Of a stretch of DNA of 64,000 nt, positions 32,898 through 43,334 are shown in pieces (the stretch's first letter is position 1; each line of letters starts with the position of its first letter). Under the pieces are notes generated by a model, which saw nothing but the letters and a program-made list of their open reading frames with translations, was not told the DNA's origin and ran no database searches. This stretch comes from a virus: the IMG/VR virus record IMGVR_UViG_3300044878_000051, positions 30,031 to 94,030 of that record. The stretch is one strand, 5' to 3'. A program made the position numbers and the translations under genes.

Positions 32898-33254
32898 TTA
32901 ACTGTACAGGTACAAACCTGTGGGACGTATATAAAGGATGAGGTTCTCGTTGAACTTTCTAGGGATCAAGAGTTTCGCTATGCGGTTACGCAGAACGTGG
33001 TCTCGATCTAGGAAGCACAACACCCCATGAAGTACAGTGACAAAGTGTGACGGGTATTGTTGCTGAACTATCCTACCAGTCAACTCTTCCACAGTCTCCC
33101 TTAGCCAAAGGTATTCAATCAACCCAACCAATTCCTCGTAGTCTCCGAAGGCTTGTGTCAGGTACTGAAACTTGAGCATCCCCAAGGCTACATCTATATC
33201 GTCTCGCAGGTGTACTTGAATCTGGCGAAACCCTATAACGAATTGGAGCCGCAT
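32898..33254 (-). CDS. Hypothetical protein, paralog of 32531..32887
   Basis: 118 aa; first gene after an early promoter. Confidence 0.75.
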   Translation of the reverse strand: MRLQFVIGFRQIQVHLRDDIDVALGMLKFQYLTQAFGDYEELVGLIEYLWLRETVEELTGRIVQQQYPSHFVTVLHGVLCFLDRDHVLRNRIAKLLIPRKFNENLILYIRPTGLYLYS

Positions 33255-33286
33255 GGTTCTAACCTTTCTGAAGGTTTGTTCAATTG

Positions 33287-33304
33287 GATAATATAGGTCT
33301 CAAA
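33287..33304 (-). promoter_or_regulatory. Early-type promoter motif
   Basis: Minus strand TTTGAGACCTATATTATC. Confidence 0.65.
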
Positions 33305-33393
33305 CTTCTTCGGATGGCCTGTATGCTCTTTACTCTATATCATCAGGGGTTTGTGTGAACTTATACACGCAGTCGCTCCTGTGAGCTTACAGA

Positions 33394-33435
33394 CGGCATA
33401 AAGCCCAACCACCCTCAGTTGGACTGGGCTTTATG
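33394..33435 (-). terminator. Terminator at the end of the RNA island
   Basis: CATAAAGCCCA...TGGGCTTTATG hairpin; reads ...TTTATGCCG on the minus strand. Confidence 0.75.
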
Positions 33436-33439
33436 TTTT

Positions 33440-34235
33440 ACGCTGGCTTCGGTCGGCTATCCGTGAGTGGAGTCAGGTCCCCTCTCGGCCAACCTAGTGG
33501 GGTCGGAGTAGCCAGGCATGTTTTCCCACCGAGTACCCCTGACGGCACAAGGATTGCGGCTAGAACTTACGCACCCCTCCAATTGCCCGGCTCGGCTGGT
33601 AAAGGTAGGATTCCAATGCGTAAGCGAAGTGCCGAAACACTTCCCCAAGACTATTCAGATCGAACCCGGCCTAGGCACATCCGAATACTCTTGAGGCTGC
33701 GTTCAAGCGTAGGCCCCAACCACTATAGGTGCAGAGGGGGCGGGCTATCGTACAACTTGAACCCTTCGCGGGGGTCCCGTACCCTTTGCCTTACCGGTCG
33801 AGTGCGAGTCAACTTTATAGGGCTTCCTGTAGTACGTCTGCTTATCCAGGGTGAGGTTGCAAACGCCCAACCCTTGCCGGGCTGAGATACGTGACCCCTC
33901 GGGTTCAACCGAGCAGCGACGATTTAAGACCCCCGAACCCACCGGCTCTCTGGACAGAGTAGTCACTAGGTTTTGACCGTGGTCGGGGGAATCAAGCTAC
34001 CCTCTCTCTTTGAGTCGTCTACACTTACGCAATTCCTCGAAAGGCAGCGATTTGGGGTTTGGTCCTAAAAGTAGTAACCATTCCTACGACGTCAGGGGAT
34101 TAGCCTGTGAGGGTACAACTAGGGGTGAGCGGGAAAGCCGAAACCTTCCAGACAGTTAGATGCCCGACGGGGAGGGGCCTGTCCAAGAGTTGGGTAGATA
34201 AAGTCCAACTCAAGACTTACGATACGCTCACTTCT
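33440..34235 (-). ncRNA. Large (~800 nt) highly structured non-coding RNA of unknown class
   Basis: Nested long-range helices and three UUCG hairpins; most G-U pairs favour the minus strand; no credible ORF. Boundaries are approximate. Confidence 0.75.
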
Positions 34236-34238
34236 GGT

Positions 34239-34691
34239 TTAACGACCGCACCAAGAGCGCTTGGTGCCACCGTCGTACGCAACTGCAAGACCATTCTTGA
34301 TCAGCACTTGCGCGATGTCTATATCGTCTACCATGACTTTGGACACGATTCTGAAATACTTGTCACGCTCAGGGGCCACCAGTCTAATAGTGGACGAGGC
34401 GTCGACGTACTTCTTCAGGAGTACCCGAGCTTGACGTGCCTTTGCTTTCTCAGCTTCTTGGTCAGCGACTGCTTTACAAGTGCTGTGCATCTCAGGCGCA
34501 TCAATGCCCGCAAGGCGAATCCCTACGTTCTTTCCGAAGAGGTCAGGAACCTCAGGGATGTTTACGTAGATCGTGTCGCCATCGTAAACTCTCACTACCT
34601 GTTTCGGAGACAACGTCAGATCGCTATAAGCGTAGACGCTGAATGAAGCCAGAGTAAGAATCAGCATTGCAAAGATATTGCGGAAGTTCAT
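34239..34691 (-). CDS. Thermonuclease (SNase-like) with a signal peptide
   Basis: VYDGDT, IRLAGIDAPE, DKYFR and LIKNGLA motifs; N-terminal hydrophobic segment ending VYA. Confidence 0.9.
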   Translation of the reverse strand: MNFRNIFAMLILTLASFSVYAYSDLTLSPKQVVRVYDGDTIYVNIPEVPDLFGKNVGIRLAGIDAPEMHSTCKAVADQEAEKAKARQARVLLKKYVDASSTIRLVAPERDKYFRIVSKVMVDDIDIAQVLIKNGLAVAYDGGTKRSWCGR

Positions 34692-34801
34692 AGTTACGCT
34701 CCAAGGGATATACAACATACTATCACTTGGGTATTCGTGTAGGCACCTGCTTCAGTCCCGCCTTCACCACGCTCTCGGGTGTGCGTCAAACTTAGTCAGG
34801 A

Positions 34802-34872
34802 GGCTCTCTTGTTGGAATCGAACCAACGACGGCGTTCGCGAGTCGCTACTCTACCATTGAGCTAAAGAGAAC
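34802..34872 (-). ncRNA. Degenerate tRNA / tRNA-like RNA with a shortened anticodon arm
   Basis: Canonical D arm (TAGCTCAATGGTAGAG) and T arm (GTTGG-TTCGATT-CCAAC); only a 3-bp anticodon stem. Confidence 0.6.
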
Positions 34873-35084
34873 ACTATTTGAAAGGGTGCCTTCTCTCAGT
34901 GTCGGGATGGGTTCTTTGTTTCCAGCGCAGATCCAAAACTACATTGAGAGAGAAGACATAACTCATTTACCCCATTAGTTCCCCTAGTTCTGATTACCCT
35001 GCGCGTCAGGTCGTTCGTAACTAGGGTAGGCGCGTACTGTCGCCTCGTTTTACTTCTGTTCCCTAAGGAACCTTCTAATGAGCA

Positions 35085-35211
35085 TCCCCGTGCCAAGATT
35101 CGAACTTGGGACCTCCACCGGACCCTCGAGTTAAACCCCCTTCATTACCTAAGTAACTAATGGTGGAACTCAAAGGCCCGACAGTGTTCTAACCGACTGA
35201 ACTAAACGGGG
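35085..35211 (-). ncRNA. tRNA-like RNA with the anticodon arm extended into a long stem
   Basis: Acceptor CCCCGT/ACGGGG, D arm TAGTTCAGTCGGTTAGAAC, T arm CCAAG-TTCGAAT-CTTGG; about 50 extra nt in the anticodon arm. Confidence 0.75.
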
Positions 35212-35220
35212 TTTACAAAT

Positions 35221-35308
35221 TGGCGGAAGCGCAGAGATTCGAACTCTGGGGGCTGTTACACCCGACGGTTTTCAAGACCGTTGCCTTAAACCACTCGGCC
35301 ACGCTTCC
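35221..35308 (-). tRNA. tRNA-Ser(TGA)
   Basis: Full cloverleaf with a long variable arm and encoded CCA. Confidence 0.95.
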
Positions 35309-35641
35309 TAAAACAAGCCCCAGTCCTATTCACCGGGGTAGTCACCATACAGCCAAGGCGTTAGCTGTAGTCCATTGGGAACTGAGCAGGAGTCGAATAG
35401 ACCTCGAATCAGCAAGCTCACCCCATCCACCTAGGACGGAGCAACACGCCACTCTAAGCGCATCGAGGGACATCTCGAACGCAGTGGGTGTGGTTGGGTC
35501 GACACCAGCAGGGCAGGCAGCAGGTGTTCGGGGGTCAGGCTTTCGCCCGATGCAACAGTTTCAGCAATCCCTTAGGGAGTTGCTTAGTCTTCGCCTTACG
35601 ACGAGGGCTAGAGAATGGGAAACCAGGCATGGCTCTCTCCT

Positions 35642-36535
35642 TTACGGCGTGTATTGCCACAGCGCAGCGAGCATTGGTGTATTGCTGCCACCGTGGACGT
35701 AGACCTTCCCGTTGTATGATACGGCAACTGCTTGGAACTGACGCGGGGTATGGGCTTTTAGCTTAATCCACACATTGCTGTCTGGATCGTACTTATAGAT
35801 GTCAGTGTTAGTCTGCGAGTTACCGCCACCGACATACATTTTACCGTCCACGACGCCGGCCCAGTGATCGGAGCGGGCGTTGCCGGTACCCGTGTTAGGC
35901 GCCAATACGCCCCAGGTGTCGGCTACAGTATCGTAGACCCACAGCATGTTGTTGTCAGCACTGGCAAACCCACCATGTAGGTAAATCAGTGTACCGATGG
36001 CAACTACTGTAGCGTCATAGCGAATCTGGGACATCGACGCCTTAGCTGTCCAAGTTCCGGCCACAGGATCGTAACATTGAACTGGTTGTGCAAGAGGCTC
36101 CGTAGTCGATCGACCACCCACCAAGTAAAGCAGACCGCCCACTTCAACCAATGATCCACGTTCGCGTGGGTTGGGTCCGTTAGGCAATTGCGTCCACTGA
36201 TTAGTAGCGGGATCGTACTTCCAGAGATCTTGTGTTCTTTGGCCAGTTGCGGGTAATCCACCATAAAGGTAAATCAACCCATTGACCGAAGCCATCTGTG
36301 ATGCATTTCGCGGTGGCGGACCTACCGCCAATTGCTCTACCAGTCGGGTGTCAAAGTTATACCGTATAAAGCTATCGGTCTTTACGTTCCCGTCCAAAAC
36401 ACCGCCATGGATATATAGCCAACCATCCAGCACTGTACCCGAGTGATCCCGGCGTCCTAAGTCTACATCCCCTAGGCTCACCCAAGAGTCGGTGACGACT
36501 GTGCGACCGCTCACATTTAACATAGCTTCCAGCAT
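35642..36535 (-). CDS. Kelch-repeat beta-propeller protein
   Basis: Six repeats of the (I/L/M/V)YxxGG...Y(D/N)...W pattern; MLEAML start has a GGAG SD. Confidence 0.9.
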   Translation of the reverse strand: MLEAMLNVSGRTVVTDSWVSLGDVDLGRRDHSGTVLDGWLYIHGGVLDGNVKTDSFIRYNFDTRLVEQLAVGPPPRNASQMASVNGLIYLYGGLPATGQRTQDLWKYDPATNQWTQLPNGPNPRERGSLVEVGGLLYLVGGRSTTEPLAQPVQCYDPVAGTWTAKASMSQIRYDATVVAIGTLIYLHGGFASADNNMLWVYDTVADTWGVLAPNTGTGNARSDHWAGVVDGKMYVGGGNSQTNTDIYKYDPDSNVWIKLKAHTPRQFQAVAVSYNGKVYVHGGSNTPMLAALWQYTP

Positions 36536-36626
36536 GAGCGTACTCTCCATATAGACATATCCATACCATGTCTACCTAGAGAGTGCTTACAAAGGACAGT
36601 CAACGATGACTACCCTCTTTAGAATG

Positions 36627-36715
36627 TGGCAGTAGATGAGAGATTCGAACTCTCGAGGCTGTTACACCTACACCCTTAGCAGGGGCGCTCCTTAATCCAT
36701 CTCAGACAATCTACT
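36627..36715 (-). tRNA. tRNA-Ser(GCT)
   Basis: Cloverleaf with anticodon loop CTGCTAA, long variable arm and GCCA end. Confidence 0.9.
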
Positions 36716-36724
36716 GTAAAGTTT

Positions 36725-36872
36725 GATCAATACCCGGTGTGTGGTATGTTTTTTGGTTTGTGTCTTGGCCGCCCAGCCAGGATTTCGGGTTGTACCTGGA
36801 ATGCTACCTCGGAGGGTAGAGTTATACCTTTCGGCGTTTTTAACTATTGGGCTTTGTACCACACCACTGATC
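36725..36872 (-). ncRNA. Putative structured RNA (terminal stem plus four-way junction)
   Basis: Terminal helix, A-rich internal loop, and a closing helix carrying three hairpins. Confidence 0.5.
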
Positions 36873-36898
36873 GTGCTTGAGTTGTTCCCTTTGGTCTG

Positions 36899-37058
36899 TG
36901 CTCTCTGAGGTCGGATTTGAACCGACAATGGCGAACGCTCAAGCCATTACGCTGCACGTTTTGCCGCACCCACAGACAGGCGGCCCTACTAATGGGACCA
37001 GGGCCATTTTGCCAGAAGGCTCAACCCAGGGTATACCAATTCCCCCACTCGAGGGAAC
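36899..37058 (-). ncRNA. tRNA-Leu-like RNA with an expanded central region
   Basis: D arm GTGGGGGAATTGGTATACCC and T arm GTCGG-TTCAAAT-CCGAC, separated by about 105 nt. Confidence 0.6.
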
Positions 37059-37069
37059 AACTCATTGCT

Positions 37070-37144
37070 TGGCTCCGAGACCTGGGTTCGAACCAGGGAC
37101 CCAACGGTTAACAGCCGTTTGCTCTACCACTGAGCTATCTCGGA
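37070..37144 (-). tRNA. tRNA-Asn(GTT)
   Basis: Canonical cloverleaf with encoded CCA. Confidence 0.95.
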
Positions 37145-37152
37145 ATGAAACT

Positions 37153-37335
37153 TTAGGACGCCTTCAGAACTTCAGCGACCTTGATCTCGCGATCGTCGTA
37201 GACAACGCGCCGAGCTTGCTCACCGTCTTGTAGGGTGAACGTCTCGTACACTTCGCCTGTGACGCGATTCACGACCATCACATGGACTTCTTTATCGGAG
37301 GCGCAATGGGCTTCCGTAATAACGGTGGTAGTCAT
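37153..37335 (-). CDS. Small hypothetical protein
   Basis: 60 aa with an AAGGAG SD. Confidence 0.7.
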   Translation of the reverse strand: MTTTVITEAHCASDKEVHVMVVNRVTGEVYETFTLQDGEQARRVVYDDREIKVAEVLKAS

Positions 37336-37344
37336 GATGACTCC

Positions 37345-38169
37345 TTAACGACGGTTGCGGTTCATAACCTTGGCTTCGAGTTCAACGAACAACTCCATCG
37401 GGTAATCTTCCGGAAGGTTCACCGACACCGAAGTGTTGAAGGTTTCCGGGTTGATACCGATGCTGAACGGAGCTGCGGCTTGGCTACCGAGCGTACCGTT
37501 GATGATCCACTCGCCTTTGTGGCGAATAGGTCGTGAGTGGTTGATCGCAACTTCCACACCGTCACGGGTGACGATACGGATCAGCTTGATGGACTCGAGG
37601 GAGTCAGTGAGGTCCAGATCAACCCCAGTGCCACGGATCAAGACGAACAAGCTCTTGCGGTCACCATCCTTCAGCGGGATGCGAACCACGTCAGAACCGG
37701 GAGCTTCCACAACCTCTTCCAGGATCTGCCAGTCGTCAGCCAATTGATCCGACTGAGCCGGAATCCACGGGGTGAACATGTTCTGCGCAGTGCGCATGCC
37801 GATCCACGGAGCGAGTGTCGGACACTCGTTCTGACCGGGCTTGTAACCGATGGTCGCGCAACCCACGTCGTAATGACCAGGGGCAACGTAGACCAGCCAC
37901 ATGTTCTTACCGTTCCACGAAGGACGGGTAACACGCTTGCCTTGCTTCAGGGCTTCGATAGCCAGGCCGAAGTTCAAAGCATCGCTAGGACGATAGCTGT
38001 CCTCGAACACGGCTTTCGGCGACCAAGACTGGTGACCGTTGTCGTATTCAACCAGGTAGCCTTCGTCGGCACCATTTTCGTCAGCAGGGAGTTCCCAGCC
38101 TTTGAGTTGATTGTAATCCAACCGAGACATGGGTGTTCCGGTAACGCGCTTGGTACCGATGTAGTTCAT
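37345..38169 (-). CDS. tad2: Multidomain protein containing a Tad2/DUF2829 signal-sponge domain
   Basis: FGLAIEALKQGKRVTRPSWNGKNMW...PWIPAQSDQLADDW is the DUF2829 signature; extra N- and C-terminal domains. Confidence 0.8.
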   Translation of the reverse strand: MNYIGTKRVTGTPMSRLDYNQLKGWELPADENGADEGYLVEYDNGHQSWSPKAVFEDSYRPSDALNFGLAIEALKQGKRVTRPSWNGKNMWLVYVAPGHYDVGCATIGYKPGQNECPTLAPWIGMRTAQNMFTPWIPAQSDQLADDWQILEEVVEAPGSDVVRIPLKDGDRKSLFVLIRGTGVDLDLTDSLESIKLIRIVTRDGVEVAINHSRPIRHKGEWIINGTLGSQAAAPFSIGINPETFNTSVSVNLPEDYPMELFVELEAKVMNRNRR

Positions 38170-38178
38170 GGTCAATCC

Positions 38179-38340
38179 TTAACAGATCATGATAGGCACT
38201 GGTATGCCCTGTTCTTTGCAAACACGCTCGAGGTTCTCCTGAGCTGCTCGCCATTGTTCTAGCCTTGCGAGGGTTTCCTCACGAGACTTCGGATTGATCT
38301 TGGAACGATCCAGATCACTTAAGCGAAATGTACGTACCAT
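38179..38340 (-). CDS. Small hypothetical protein
   Basis: MVRTF start with an AAGGAG SD; 53 aa. Confidence 0.65.
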   Translation of the reverse strand: MVRTFRLSDLDRSKINPKSREETLARLEQWRAAQENLERVCKEQGIPVPIMIC

Positions 38341-38432
38341 GATCGACTCCTTGAATTTGGTGGTCAGTACCGGGCTCTTAACCGGCTGCATCGACAAGCC
38401 ACGACTGCCCCGACTCGTAAGCAGTGAAGGTT

Positions 38433-38527
38433 TCTAACGTAGAGCGCTTTAACCTGACTAAGCTATCAGCCCTGTTAGGCGGACCGTCCGAGACAAGGGA
38501 TCTGAACCCAAGTTCTCTCTACGTTGA
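38433..38527 (-). ncRNA. Circularly permuted tRNA-like element (YrlA Y-RNA topology)
   Basis: Order is 5' stem, T arm, loop-closed acceptor stem, D arm, 3' stem; 9-bp AACGTAGAG/CTCTACGTT closing helix. Confidence 0.6.
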
Positions 38528-38665
38528 TTTTCTGAAGTTGACAAGGGAGAAAGGCGGCTCGTTTTATCTCCCGACTTGTACCCATGCACCTTAATGAACC
38601 ACTGGGCGGCTCCTTTGAGTGCGGTTCGGTCTGTACCCTACCGTCTGTCAATCAACTTCAAAAAG

Positions 38666-38742
38666 TGGCGCCTCCGAACGGACTCGAACCGTCGACCCCT
38701 AGCGTGACAGGCTAGTGCTCTAACCAACTGAGCTACGGAAGC
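38666..38742 (-). tRNA. tRNA-Asp(GTC)
   Basis: Canonical cloverleaf with encoded CCA. Confidence 0.95.
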
Positions 38743-38817
38743 GTAAAAGGTCCCACTGGGCTTGCATCGAGCTAACGGCGAACCGTTTGGTGCAAGAGCT
38801 GATCCAGCAGGATGTAG

Positions 38818-38899
38818 GGTGGAACCACCGGGAATCAAACCCGATTAGCCCGATCGACCTTTCAGCCTATCAGTCGCTTTAACATTAAGCTATAGTCCC
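38818..38899 (-). ncRNA. tRNA-like RNA with a G3:U70 acceptor and a GAAA-capped anticodon arm
   Basis: Acceptor GGGACTA/TGGTTCC+A; D and T arms present; anticodon loop replaced by GGCT-GAAA-GGTC. Confidence 0.65.
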
Positions 38900-39164
38900 G
38901 GAAATGGCTCCGGCTTGCTCCCCACCGCTATCGTGGTTCACTAAACTCATGTGTAGCCAGACGACCCGCCGGAGAGGTCTTTAACTAGATGTACCAGTAA
39001 TCCTGAGGTTCCGAAGAAGGCAGGCACACGATGCAACTCCACTGGACTACGAGTAGGGTGATCCTTCCCCGCATTCGACGCGGGAATTAATGCTGAGGCG
39101 CGCCCGTCACCGACATTCGCTCAAAAGGCAAGTCTAATTAGGCGCACAGCAAAGGATCGTGAAA

Positions 39165-39250
39165 TGGTGGGTGAGGTAGGATTCGAACCTACGAAGCACA
39201 CGGCGTCAGATTTACAATCTGATAACTTTGAACCACTTGTATACTCACCC
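39165..39250 (-). tRNA. tRNA-Tyr(GTA)
   Basis: Cloverleaf with a variable arm and ACCA end. Confidence 0.93.
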
Positions 39251-39256
39251 GTTAAA

Positions 39257-39376
39257 GCAGCCGGTGTCGTGCATCGAAGCACTGCTAGTTCCCGGACCGC
39301 ACTAGCTTTCCATTAACGAAGGCTGACGCGTTGTCAGCTATGGCCCTCGTTAATGACCTCCCAGAGGTACACCTGC
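39257..39376 (-). ncRNA. Putative multi-hairpin structured RNA
   Basis: Closing helix plus four hairpins fill the whole inter-tRNA spacer. Confidence 0.5.
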
Positions 39377-39382
39377 ACAAAC

Positions 39383-39543
39383 TGGCCCCGAGGGGTGGAC
39401 TCAAACCACCGACCTATCCGTTCAACCGACTCCGTTTCACGGGAGAGTTTAGGTTGCACTGGCACTGCCGACCCCACGCATTAGCGTTCATGTCGTGATT
39501 ACCAGTGGTCTCGGACTGTTCTATCAACTGAACTACCCAGGGG
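39383..39543 (-). ncRNA. tRNA-like RNA with an ~90-nt two-hairpin insertion in the anticodon loop
   Basis: D arm TAGTTCAGTTGATAGAAC, stem GTCCG/CGGAT, AGGTC variable loop, T arm GGTGG-TTTGAGT-CCACC, GCCA end. Confidence 0.75.
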
Positions 39544-39551
39544 ATAAACCT

Positions 39552-39704
39552 TTAGAACTCACCCCGTTCCGGACGAGGTTGAGTAACAGCGGCCCCTAAG
39601 AGGAACACGGCACCAAAGACAATGGCACCGACCTTAGGATCAAACGCTGCTGGAACAGCCGCAACAATGAGGGCCGGTACAGCAATGAACACAGCTCGCA
39701 TCAT
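39552..39704 (-). CDS. 50-aa protein with two predicted membrane segments
   Basis: Absent from the ORF track. AAGGAG SD; MMRAVFIAVPALIVAAVPAAFDPKVGAIVFGAVFLLGAAVTQPRPERGEF. Confidence 0.7.
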   Translation of the reverse strand: MMRAVFIAVPALIVAAVPAAFDPKVGAIVFGAVFLLGAAVTQPRPERGEF

Positions 39705-40016
39705 GGCGACTCTCCTTGAAATTAACCGCTACCCCGTCCTACGGAATGCAATACAACAAGTGTGTCCCAAAAGGAAAAGAAAGAAAACCTCTGGGGATGC
39801 GGTATGCAAGCGCATCATGGTACACACTGTTGCCGGGTCACGTTCGACTAAACCGTAGTTACACTGGTACCCGTCATGCCAGTGTATCCCTGTAAAGGGA
39901 AATCCCCCCAAAGCCGCGAAGCTCTGGGTCGTGCTGGAATCACTACTATCAGTCGGTTACGCGTCAGTCTCTCAATAGATGCGTGGGCTATGTAAAATAA
40001 TACGTAATATCCAGCC

Positions 40017-40044
40017 AAAAAAAAAGGGTTCTCGAAAGAACCCC
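40017..40044 (-). terminator. Intrinsic terminator
   Basis: GGGTTCT-cgaa-AGAACCC hairpin with an A9 tract (U tract on the minus strand). Confidence 0.8.
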
Positions 40045-40058
40045 TAAGTTTTGAGGTG

Positions 40059-40469
40059 TTACGGGATCGCAGGGAAGCCTACGATCTTGAGGATCAAGTT
40101 ACGCTTACGACGGTACCAACCAGCAGACTTCGCAGGGAAGCCTCTCTCGGTGCTCTGCTTGCGGATCTGAGGATCGTCTTCGAACAACAGGGGTACTGGG
40201 AAGTAACGCCAGTGTTTCGGTTCCCCAGAGCGCACCAGAGCGTGCAGGGTGCGTTTGCTCCACTTGCTGGTAGTGATACCAGCGATCAGTTCTTGGCGGA
40301 TCTCTTCGTGGTCTTGCTCGGTTGGGTAAACGGCGAAGATGTTCTTGTAGTGGGCAATCGTGGTCTTGTCTTCATTGGTGGTCTTCTCCATTATAAACAG
40401 GACGCCACCGATGTCGTGGAGGGAGACGTTGCCATTCTCGTATTTGTGTGTTACGAATTCTGCGGACAT
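40059..40469 (-). CDS. Hypothetical early protein
   Basis: 136 aa between an early promoter and a terminator. Confidence 0.7.
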   Translation of the reverse strand: MSAEFVTHKYENGNVSLHDIGGVLFIMEKTTNEDKTTIAHYKNIFAVYPTEQDHEEIRQELIAGITTSKWSKRTLHALVRSGEPKHWRYFPVPLLFEDDPQIRKQSTERGFPAKSAGWYRRKRNLILKIVGFPAIP

Positions 40470-40522
40470 GATTCGGGCCTTCTAAGGTATGGGGGGATTA
40501 AAGGTATTTCCTATTCACTTGG

Positions 40523-40539
40523 GTAATATAGATCTGAAA
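40523..40539 (-). promoter_or_regulatory. Early promoter (TATATTAC)
   Basis: Minus strand TTTCAGATCTATATTAC contains the exact phiKZ early core. Confidence 0.75.
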
Positions 40540-40597
40540 CTTATTTGCTTCAACCCAAATAGAATGAAGGTGTTATCTTTAATCACGGGGTGTCCAC

Positions 40598-41215
40598 ATG
40601 GGGCGTTTAGTAAATCTGCTCGAGGAAGCTGAGCTTACCTTGACGTACAGTGCAGAAGGAATCGCTTTGCTGGATGCCAGCAAAGAGGAAGTTCCTACCA
40701 AGGATATTTATATCCTGTTAACCGACACCAAGACCTTAGTGAGTAAGGTGAGTCGTATGGTGACTGGTGATCCGTACAACCATGTGTCGCTGATGTTGTC
40801 TGAGGACTTCGATGAGGGTATCTATACCTTCAGTCTCTCGAACGGCCTTAACGGCATCTTTGGGGGCTTCATGGTGGAGGATCGTAAGAACCTGAAAGGG
40901 TCTCACTACTCCATGTATCGTGTCGCGGTCACTAACAGCGTCTACGACAAGATTAAGCTTAAGGTGACTGACTACATTAACGCGGTAGACAAAACCTCCT
41001 ACAACCACTTGGGGTTGTTTAATGCGATCTTCAAGAAAGGCATCTTCAAGTCTGAAGACGGCCAAACTTCGATCTGTTCTGAATTCGTGGTGGAAGTGTT
41101 AAAATTTGCTGGCGTAGAACTCTTCGCCAAAAGATTAGCGAGCACTGTAAGACCTTACGAGTTGGTCAAATCCAAGCTGCTGAAGTTCCACAAGCGTGGC
41201 GTCATAAAAGGCTGA
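40598..41215 (+). CDS. Permuted papain-like NlpC/P60 (YiiX/YaeF-type) enzyme
   Basis: His precedes Cys: PYNHVSL ... SYN ... ICSEFV. Confidence 0.8.
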   Translation: MGRLVNLLEEAELTLTYSAEGIALLDASKEEVPTKDIYILLTDTKTLVSKVSRMVTGDPYNHVSLMLSEDFDEGIYTFSLSNGLNGIFGGFMVEDRKNLKGSHYSMYRVAVTNSVYDKIKLKVTDYINAVDKTSYNHLGLFNAIFKKGIFKSEDGQTSICSEFVVEVLKFAGVELFAKRLASTVRPYELVKSKLLKFHKRGVIKG

Positions 41216-42180: not shown

Positions 42181-42372
42181 TCAGCCCATCCCGACACCAG
42201 AAGGACGGTTCTCGACCTGATGTTTCGCAGGATCGTAAACCACCTTCTCGTAGCAGTTGTGCCAAGGTTTTCCCAAACAGCAAGTGCAATGAAACGGTGA
42301 CGCCGCTGGTTTGCTCAGGAGTTCAATGACTCCGCACTTGTCGCAAGCGTATTCCAGCAGCGTGCCGCTCAT
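42181..42372 (-). CDS. Small Cys-rich putative zinc-binding protein
   Basis: CDKC...CTCC...WH; start overlaps the phuZ stop codon. Confidence 0.7.
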   Translation of the reverse strand: MSGTLLEYACDKCGVIELLSKPAASPFHCTCCLGKPWHNCYEKVVYDPAKHQVENRPSGVGMG

Positions 42373-43334
42373 TACAACACCAGGCCGTCGTCAGTAGTGG
42401 CAGCGTTGCCCACCAGATCGACAGCAGCAGCACGGCCATCACGGCGCAGGATGAAGTTGTCCAGAGTGGTCTGAAGACGCTCGTAAGTTTCGTTCAGGTT
42501 CTCGGTGGACACCACGAGGTGGACTTCGCTGACGCCTTCGATAGCGGTCTTGAAGTAACCGGTGCACGGATATTCCGGGATCGGCTCTTCCAGATGCTTC
42601 TGATCACGGTCGCTGTACAGCGAAGCGATGGTGATCGGGTCCTTGATGGCCTTGACGGCTTCAGGGTTGTAGAAGATGTCCAACATGGCCAGTTGTGCCG
42701 GCACGCTGGTCGAGTGGTTGAAACGCAGCCAGTTGGCAACGTCTTTGGTATCCAGCTCATCGTTCTGACGCGAGGTCAGGTAGCACAGGCTGGAGATGGC
42801 CAGGTGGAGTTGACCGTCGACTACCGAACGAGTGCAGTCGCCGCCGTTGTGGCGGTAGTGCATGACGATCGGGGTATCGACTTGCTTGGAGATGGCTGCC
42901 AGCGACTTGATGGTGTTCAGGCTGTTCTGTGCCGTGATGGTCGATTCCGAAGAACCCGCCAGCAGGACAACAACCGAGTGACCACGGGACGCCAGCTCTT
43001 TTGCCAGCAACGGGCCGATGACCGAACCCGAACCGCCGGATGCCGAGAAGACCACGATGTTGAAGTCTTCAGGAACTTGTTGCAGAAGGATCTGCTTGAC
43101 CGCTGCGGAGATCTGCGCGTGGTTCTCTTTACGCACTTTACCGGAGCCGTCGGTTTTGTCCAGGACGTAGATCGAGCTTTCGTCTTCGATGCCGGCCAAG
43201 TTGGAACGGCTGGTATCTACGAAGCTGACCAACGGTGTAGCGAAGCCAGGAGCTGGCGGACGACCGATGTAGGTTTTGACAATGTTCGTGCCAAGGCCAC
43301 CACAGCCGTACAGACGCACTTTACCTTGTTCCAT
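42372..43334 (-). CDS. phuZ: Tubulin-like spindle protein PhuZ
   Basis: GCGGLG, DTS, DGSGK, SASGGSGS tubulin signature and ELDTKD T7 loop. Confidence 0.95.
   Translation of the reverse strand: MEQGKVRLYGCGGLGTNIVKTYIGRPPAPGFATPLVSFVDTSRSNLAGIEDESSIYVLDKTDGSGKVRKENHAQISAAVKQILLQQVPEDFNIVVFSASGGSGSVIGPLLAKELASRGHSVVVLLAGSSESTITAQNSLNTIKSLAAISKQVDTPIVMHYRHNGGDCTRSVVDGQLHLAISSLCYLTSRQNDELDTKDVANWLRFNHSTSVPAQLAMLDIFYNPEAVKAIKDPITIASLYSDRDQKHLEEPIPEYPCTGYFKTAIEGVSEVHLVVSTENLNETYERLQTTLDNFILRRDGRAAAVDLVGNAATTDDGLVL

Follow-up and report, generated by a model that had tools for sequence, protein, structure and literature searches.

tmRNA is a non-canonical RNA that is charged by AlaRS via G3:U70 without an anticodon. 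Its tRNA-like domain is formed from distant 5′ and 3′ ends, without a full D stem, and a tag reading frame and pseudoknots lie enclosed between them. The YrlA-type Y RNAs (RF02553) are non-decoding RNAs that keep the acceptor, D, and T parts of a tRNA and carry tRNA-type modifications, and the YrlA of M. smegmatis is cut by RNase P and receives CCA (PMC4201824). YrlA is circularly permuted, its two ends forming part of a Ro60-binding stem, and its gene lies beside a Ro60/TROVE gene. Among viral structured RNAs catalogued in 2023 are tRNA-like candidates, with anticodons not mentioned in the text of that study (PMC10690425). Phage T4 has stable RNAs in its tRNA cluster, species 1 and species 2 (rnaC and rnaD), to which the element described here may bear a resemblance. 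In this study, we describe a phage element, here called (b), whose distinctive points are an identifiable alanine parent and a minimal anticodon arm sealed by a GAAA cap.

The window analyzed, 64,000 nucleotides in length, comprises bases 30031–94030 of a 94-kb IMG/VR viral record (G000) with a CheckV completeness of 34%. It was compared with a relative that is 86% complete (G001), with the IMG/VR loci L003, L012, L013, and L014, and with contigs from the Logan runs X2, X3, and X4. A phage tubulin of the PhuZ type is encoded at 42372–43334, and the tRNA region of the window has distant nucleotide similarity to the ~300-kb Pseudomonas jumbo phages Psa21, D6, and RVTF4. The source is a nucleus-forming (PhuZ-encoding) jumbo phage, a relative of Pseudomonas phage Psa21. 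ARAGORN found five ordinary tRNAs on the minus strand at ~34800–39250 (Tyr, Asp, Asn, Ser-GCU, and Ser-UGA), and among them lie several tRNA-shaped elements that it missed or called oddly. Element (b) is inside this co-oriented cluster, also on the minus strand, and a Tad2-like anti-Thoeris protein is encoded within the same island at 37345–38175. The element and its immediate neighbors are as follows.

38666–38742, minus strand: ordinary tRNA-Asp(GUC) with an encoded CCA (ARAGORN and Rfam, 68 bits), downstream of (b)
38748–38815, minus strand: structured spacer between (b) and tRNA-Asp, a separate module that occurs in L012 and X4 without (b) and is absent from L003
38818–38899, minus strand: element (b), whole, 82 nt including the CC past the discriminator (Rfam RF00005 hit at 38820–38899)
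38905–39156, minus strand: non-coding stretch Z, the directly upstream neighbor of (b) and not part of it

Stretch Z (~250 nt) is 90% identical to L003 4911–5173, partly conserved in L014, and diverged in L012, and it has no Rfam match. In L003 and L014 it leads into the ribosome-binding site of a small reading frame. Another non-coding stretch, X (38545–38660, minus strand, ~115 nt), is 83% identical to Psa21 (L001 4001–4134), where it stands after tRNA-Pro, and it is also matched in HPP-Temi, beside a tRNA-Phe. A scan for sigma-70 promoters and terminators gave a result no better than shuffled sequence.

A sequence-only reading had described an anticodon-less tRNA at this position with G3:U70, A73, and a following CC, and every one of these details is present. 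The Rfam tRNA model matches the element over positions 1–71 with 36.6 bits (threshold 29; E = 4.7e-4 for the 64-kb window), taking in a cloverleaf with a 7-bp acceptor and D, anticodon, and T arms. For a tRNA this is a low score, the neighbors reaching 55–70 bits, and ARAGORN made no call on the element. The cloverleaf is also the RNAfold optimum, at −26.6 kcal/mol (z = −2.2), whereas the opposite strand folds like shuffled sequence (−14.3 kcal/mol, z = −0.1). The parts of the molecule are listed below.

38893–38899, minus strand: acceptor 5′ strand GGGACUA, with G3 at 38897, pairing with 38821–38827 along its whole length with wobbles at the third and sixth pairs (G3.U70 and U6.G67)
38876–38890, minus strand: D arm GCUU-AAUGUUA-AAGC (Rfam alignment), with A14, G18, and A21 kept and U at the G19 site
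38849–38874, minus strand: anticodon arm as a closed hairpin, with stem ACUGA/UCGGG and a GAAA cap at 38863–38860
38828–38848, minus strand: variable loop CUAA and T arm UCGGG-UUUGAUU-CCCGG (Rfam alignment), with U at the C56 site
38821–38827, minus strand: acceptor 3′ strand UGGUUCC, with U70 at 38823, the same strand as in several viral tRNA-Ala genes
38817–38820, minus strand: discriminator A73 (38820), C74–C75 (38819–38818), and C (38817) at the A76 site, read from the sequence

Outside the arms, U8, A9, and G26 are present. The main departure from a decoding tRNA is in the anticodon arm, where, by the Rfam alignment and the fold, 16 nt occupy the place of the 7-nt anticodon loop. These 16 nt pair as U:A, A.G, G:C, G.U, C:G, and U.G around the GAAA tetraloop, so that the whole arm is a closed hairpin of ~10 bp. 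The earlier description of a CUGAU/AUCGG stem running on into GGCU-GAAA-GGUC was correct, the continuation passing through an A.G mismatch. The inserted bases thus extend the anticodon stem by five pairs and close it with a GNRA tetraloop and do not merely disrupt the loop. U33 and a purine at 37 are lacking, the register of the model giving A at 33 and U at 37. Judged from tRNA geometry, an RNA with such a hairpin instead of an anticodon loop would be unable to pair with a codon. The elbow pair G19:C56 is also absent, with U19 in the D loop AAUGUUA and U56 in the T loop UUUGAUU, and the encoded 3′ tail is A-CC-C and not A-CCA, a detail absent from the sequence-only reading. The molecule has 25 pairs, six of them G.U, and no A.C mismatch; the acceptor, D, and T stems keep every one of their 16 pairs, and the two mismatches, both A.G, are within the remodeled anticodon arm. 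Neutral transitions should yield A.C about as often as G.U, so the count of six to zero leans toward selection on pairing, a leaning that rests on one sequence.

The YrlA-type tRNA mimics are the closest described functional relatives of element (b), but it does not have their defining features: it is a linear cloverleaf whose ends form the acceptor stem, and it has no Ro60-binding stem. RF02553 gave no match at E ≤ 1 in 33000–41000. Ro60/TROVE (PF05731) is absent from both G000 (34% complete) and G001 (86% complete), which is weak evidence because both records are incomplete. The YrlA-like permuted topology belongs to a neighbor at 38437–38530 and not to (b). That neighbor (minus strand) is a circularly permuted tRNA-like RNA, in the order closing-stem strand, variable loop, T arm, acceptor 3′ strand with G-CC-UA, loop, acceptor 5′ strand, D arm, and closing-stem strand. 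Seven phages from four groups share its core at ~85% identity (Psa21 and RVTF4; pf16; the T5-like Salmonella phage GSW6; and the Seunavirus phages GAP31 and FENT2), each time in a tRNA cluster and either unannotated or beneath tiny 'hypothetical' CDSs. Its closing helix of 8–13 bp differs in sequence from lineage to lineage, that is, it covaries. The permuted RNA has no Rfam match, and no TROVE gene turned up in G000 or G001.

The analogy with tmRNA that the sequence-only reading had drawn did not hold. ARAGORN reported no tmRNA in the window, nor did Rfam, and neither a tag reading frame nor pseudoknots were found; the element is a contiguous 80-nt cloverleaf. Intron-bearing archaeal tRNA-Ala genes (Hadarchaeota) share with it the alanine acceptor signature and extra anticodon-loop bases after position 37, but in those genes a normal anticodon loop sequence (e.g., UUCGCA) flanks the intron. 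Excising 9 nt at 37/38 of the element would leave UAGGCUA, without U33 and purine 37. There is also no bulge-helix-bulge, since the 4-bp helix is capped by the tetraloop and has below it a lone 1x1 A.G mismatch and not two 3-nt bulges, and a Pseudomonas-type phage host range gives no reason to expect a splicing endonuclease. A frameshift suppressor with an 8-nt loop was likewise rejected, as it would need an 8-bp anticodon stem, which we take from ribosomal geometry to be incompatible with the ribosome.

To trace the ancestry of the element, the pattern GGGNCYATAGCT ... TGGNTCCACC was taken from its acceptor region and searched in IMG/VR at normal tRNA spacing. At canonical length the signature occurs at at least 120 IMG/VR loci, and ARAGORN calls tRNA-Ala in 120 of the 120 matches listed. 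Some of these tRNA-Ala genes share with the element the exact 3′ strand UGGUUCC together with the D stem GCUU/AAGC. The acceptor and 8–12 region common to them fits GGGNCYAUAGCU...UGGNUCC-A-CC, which among the matches listed is found in tRNA-Ala only, and bacterial and viral tRNA-Ala further share with the element G3.U70, A73, G1:C72, G2:C71, and a cloverleaf with D, T, and variable regions. Apart from its GAAA-capped closed 16-nt helix in place of a 7-nt anticodon loop, the element is unlike tRNA-Ala in having U19/U56 for G19:C56, A4:U69 for G4:C69, no G20, and the tail CCC and not CCA. In a panel of 37 labeled tRNAs (28 from XacN1 and nine from this phage group), the best score for the 3′ half was that of the XacN1 tRNA-Ala; the panel gave no clear whole-molecule nearest relative, alanine being indicated by the 3′ half only. 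The triplet at positions 34–36 in the register of the model is GGC, an alanine anticodon, which is a hint only because any of the four alanine anticodons would appear there by chance in one case in 16. On this sequence signature, element (b) is a gene derived from an alanine tRNA. Since the acceptor signature is that of tRNA-Ala, G3:U70, A73, G1:C72, and G2:C71 are most simply inherited, and the observation of G3:U70 is accounted for without a new function.

The bacterial alanine identity set consists of A73, G2:C71, G3.U70, G4:C69, and G20; G3.U70 gives other tRNAs alanine acceptance, and the anticodon is not read by AlaRS (PMC9976931). The element has G3.U70 (38897/38823), A73, and G2:C71, and its G1:C72 is not replaced by G1.U72, but it has A4:U69 instead of G4:C69 and a U at position 20. 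We surveyed the 3′ ends of the 45 tRNA hits, without exception, that Rfam gave across the window and six related loci. CCA is encoded by 36 of the 36 ordinary tRNAs of the phage group and is missing in eight of the nine odd frames, (b) included, while G3:U70 occurs in (b) only among the 45. Where the tRNA genes of a host encode CCA, 3′ maturation proceeds by trimming to that CCA (PMC2777011). The CCC tail of the element would have to be trimmed to ACC before the host CCA-adding enzyme could repair it, a possible route but one that differs from the design of the phage's decoding tRNAs. No AlaRS, CCA-adding enzyme, FemAB, or LPG-synthase-C-type transferase was found in the incomplete records G000 and G001, and no RNA ligase or RtcB in the same two records. 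Because both are incomplete, these absences mean just that nothing in the two records speaks positively for a Y-RNA-type particle, for a repair pathway, or for a dedicated Ala-RNA user. Of the proposed chargeable, non-decoding Ala-RNA, the lack of an anticodon and the main identity elements stand, whereas the ancestry, the CCC tail, and the missing G4:C69 and G20 do not support a design for charging. On the sequence, alanylation of the element is possible but unsupported.

The element is absent from the four nearest IMG/VR relatives (L003, L012, L013, and L014) and from run X4. In L012, a 239-kb IMG/VR contig, the order is Z, 8 nt, and the spacer (from 3190 onward), compared with Z, (b), and the spacer in the window, so the element is a discrete, cleanly bounded insertion or deletion. 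A small reading frame occupies its site in L003 and L014, and in X4 the bases 38816–39164 are replaced by 668 others. A second copy was found in X3, a soil metagenome, where a 2476-nt contig, which extends over window 37715–39160 in all, covers 38347–38900 with 28 substitutions and nine gap positions (~94% identity over 554 nt) and has 209 extra bases between Z and the element; a rhizosphere contig of 518 nt (X2) extends to 38884 and covers the element in part. The X3 copy and the absence from near relatives together indicate that the element is present in at least one independent sample, yet dispensable among close relatives.

Searches for further homologues were negative. Blastn of the element against 50,697 phage genomes gave a 25-nt chance match only, BLAST against the whole records of G000, G001, Psa21, and RVTF4 returned the element itself only, and small-word blastn against all related loci compared found no homologue. 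Neither the exact T-arm-plus-acceptor pattern in IMG/VR nor the D-arm...T-arm pattern in the JGI metagenomes revealed one, and the spacer pattern found nothing in the JGI metagenomes. A protein search with a spurious reading frame that overlaps the 3′ part of the element recovered unrelated tRNA-Asp artefacts only. The alanine signature with at least four extra bases was also sought in IMG/VR and in GTDB, the latter at one genome per species. No such long frame with a closed hairpin was found in IMG/VR, which gave two chance coding hits, or in GTDB, which gave archaeal intron-bearing tRNA-Ala, chance hits, and the loci L161 and L164. L161 4850–4928 (a Sinobacteraceae MAG) is tRNA-Ala-like and of abnormal length, with a 6-bp anticodon stem, a 9-nt loop, and no closed hairpin; L164 410–500 (Franzmannia), also tRNA-Ala-like and of abnormal length, has its extra bases ahead of the T arm and no closed hairpin.

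Comparison of the window with L003, L012, L013, L014, and runs X2–X4 revealed that the island at 33300–40000 evolves by swaps of modules of 100–700 nt, comprising tRNAs, tRNA-like genes, small reading frames, and a Kelch gene (35642–36550). Swap junctions fall at the ends of tRNA-like elements, for example at 38815/38816 and 38900–38904.

Element (b) is not the only anticodon-less tRNA frame of the island. Two sister families have the following copies.

Family (i), tRNA frame: window 35085–35211, minus strand; L003 8118–8268; L013 6281–6425; L014 5760–5852
Family (k), tRNA frame: window 39383–39543, minus strand; L003 4255–4440; L012 2139–2320; L014 2859–3000

The sister frames (in the window and in the copies of L003, L013, and L014) share with the element a full tRNA frame in which the anticodon loop is replaced by an extended helix, and they mostly have no encoded CCA. 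They are unlike it in having a different parent frame, with the D arm GUUC.../GAAC, the variable loop AGGUC, and C:G or A:U at 3:70, and in being kept across relatives with compensatory changes. All copies of family (i) contain the D-arm word TAGTTCAGTCGGTTAGAAC and an identical variable loop AGGUC, while the acceptor is CCCCGU/ACGGGG in the window, CCACCG/CGGUGG in L003 and L013, and GCCCUCG/CGAGGGC in L014. The window and L003 thus differ by three double compensatory changes in the acceptor stem, and L014 adds a third acceptor sequence. The 'cargo' that replaces the anticodon loop in this family ranges from a ~60-nt domain down to 9 bp and UUCG: the window, L003, and L013 have a long helix with an apical domain as their anticodon arm, and the arm of L014 consists of just the 9 bp with a UUCG cap and matches the element in its minimal design. 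A conserved non-coding stretch, Y (window 34967–35088), always follows family (i) directly and is also present in Psa21. In family (k), ~90 nt replace the anticodon loop. Where L003 has the elbow pair G19:C56, the window has A19:U56, and CCA is encoded in the window and L014 and not in L003. Selection on a sister frame is directly visible here, and the sequences compared indicate that anticodon-less tRNA frames are under selection in this phage lineage, which raises the prior that the element is more than debris. Since position 3:70 of the sister frames is C:G or A:U, the class as such is not marked by alanine identity.

The island also contains short tRNA-like genes of 69–71 nt (window 34802–34871, minus strand; L003 7099–7169; L014 5091–5161) with truncated anticodon arms and no CCA, which ARAGORN calls 'Ala(cgc)' or 'Val(cac)'; the copy at 34802–34871 is a cassette missing from L003.

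Taken together, element (b) is most likely a tRNA-shaped RNA that does not decode and is largely uncharged, whether as a mimic or as a relic. We tentatively favor, with somewhat less than even confidence, a maintained mimic of the tRNA body that is largely uncharged. For this reading speak the fold with its strand asymmetry, the preserved base pairing, the CCA pattern, the compensated sister frames, and the Tad2-like gene in the same island. In this scheme, a descendant of tRNA-Ala has become an accessory cassette in a jumbo-phage tRNA island, with its anticodon loop turned into a closed hairpin of ~10 bp with a GAAA cap, by which codon pairing would be lost; the acceptor, D, and T helices are kept, and several positions on which ordinary tRNA work depends (G19 and C56 of the elbow, G20, and A76) are altered. 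The RNA would be produced as part of the minus-strand cluster transcript, RNase P cutting its 5′ end, and, because it ends in CCC and not CCA, it would stay mostly uncharged. If it acts at all, its stable tRNA-shaped body may occupy a tRNA-recognizing protein, and the conserved anticodon-less frames nearby probably have the same role. The sequences show the tRNA-Ala descent, the fold, and the cassette nature of the element, and its expression, processing, and decoy role are what we infer.

The main competitor of the maintained mimic is a decaying tRNA-Ala pseudogene, perhaps once tRNA-Ala(GGC), that received a 9-nt insertion in its anticodon loop and is drifting to loss, maybe still transcribed and cut but with no function of its own. 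The alterations of the anticodon loop, G19, C56, G20, and A76 are equally expected of a decaying tRNA gene, and U33 and purine 37 changed together with them; the retained GGC at 34–36 and the low tRNA score (36.6 bits against 55–70) point the same way. So does the distribution, as all four IMG/VR relatives and X4 have lost the element or lack it, and it is unique in every collection searched, which also counts against a maintained mimic. However, a drifting gene would be expected to show A.C mismatches beside its six G.U pairs, and its 16 acceptor, D, and T pairs are all intact; nor does decay readily account for an insertion that adds five stem pairs and a GNRA tetraloop, for the conservation with covariation of a closed-hairpin design in the neighboring family (i), or for the persistence of the element in a second sample, with the aligned stretch ~94% identical. 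We therefore regard the pseudogene as unlikely, if far from negligible. The spoiled CCA end and the patchy presence in relatives argue for caution about both charging and function.

Other readings give the RNA a different role or none. tRNA-shaped cut sites are known elsewhere, in mitochondrial tRNA punctuation and at MALAT1-mascRNA, and the element might be a processing signal only, that is, an RNase P/RNase Z site that sets the 3′ end of Z and the 5′ end of the spacer-tRNA-Asp precursor, the excised RNA being a by-product. It begins 5 nt past the conserved end of Z, it has an intact acceptor and T arm (the minimal RNase P substrate), and stretch Y always follows family (i) directly. But Z occurs without the element in L012, L003, and L014, the X3 copy is separated from Z by its 209 other bases, punctuation does not need an intact D arm, and a tRNA-Asp lies just 75 nt downstream, all of which make this role improbable. 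We assign a similarly low probability to an alanylated RNA that is trimmed to ACC, CCA-repaired, and charged by host AlaRS, to act without decoding as the donor that a transferase uses, to titrate AlaRS or EF-Tu, or to be a decoy for toxins aimed at tRNA-Ala. The presence of G3.U70, A73, G2:C71, and G1:C72 in the sole G3:U70 carrier of the 45 tRNA-model hits speaks for it, as does the alanine acceptance that G3.U70 confers with an AlaRS that ignores the anticodon (PMC9976931), and the M. smegmatis YrlA, itself a tRNA mimic, receives CCA in vivo (PMC4201824). On the other hand, ancestry accounts for these identity elements, the RNA lacks G4:C69 and G20, the tail is CCC where all 36 decoders have CCA, no AlaRS, CCA-adding enzyme, or FemAB/LPG-synthase-type transferase of the phage was found in the incomplete G000 and G001, and the 3:70 pairs of the sister frames argue against alanine charging as a class property. 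A related reading, which we hold to be very improbable, is a repurposed tRNA-Ala that is CCA-repaired and recognized by AlaRS via G3:U70 and acts as a decoy for an acceptor-end toxin or as a ribosome-independent alanine carrier; its closed GAAA hairpin would bar both ribosome entry and attack by anticodon nucleases.

In summary, if the element is functional, it would be the smallest example of a full tRNA body with a sealed anticodon, a recurrent design in jumbo-phage tRNA islands, and here the parent tRNA, alanine, can be named. If it is merely a decaying gene, it documents a fast gain, disabling, and loss of tRNA cassettes in such islands. The question that it poses is whether the retained AlaRS identity leads to charging, or whether the phage has spoiled the CCA end to keep the RNA out of translation. 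Either answer would help to explain what tRNA-shaped RNAs are for, be it as decoys against tRNA-targeting defenses, as stable scaffolds, or as processing signals.
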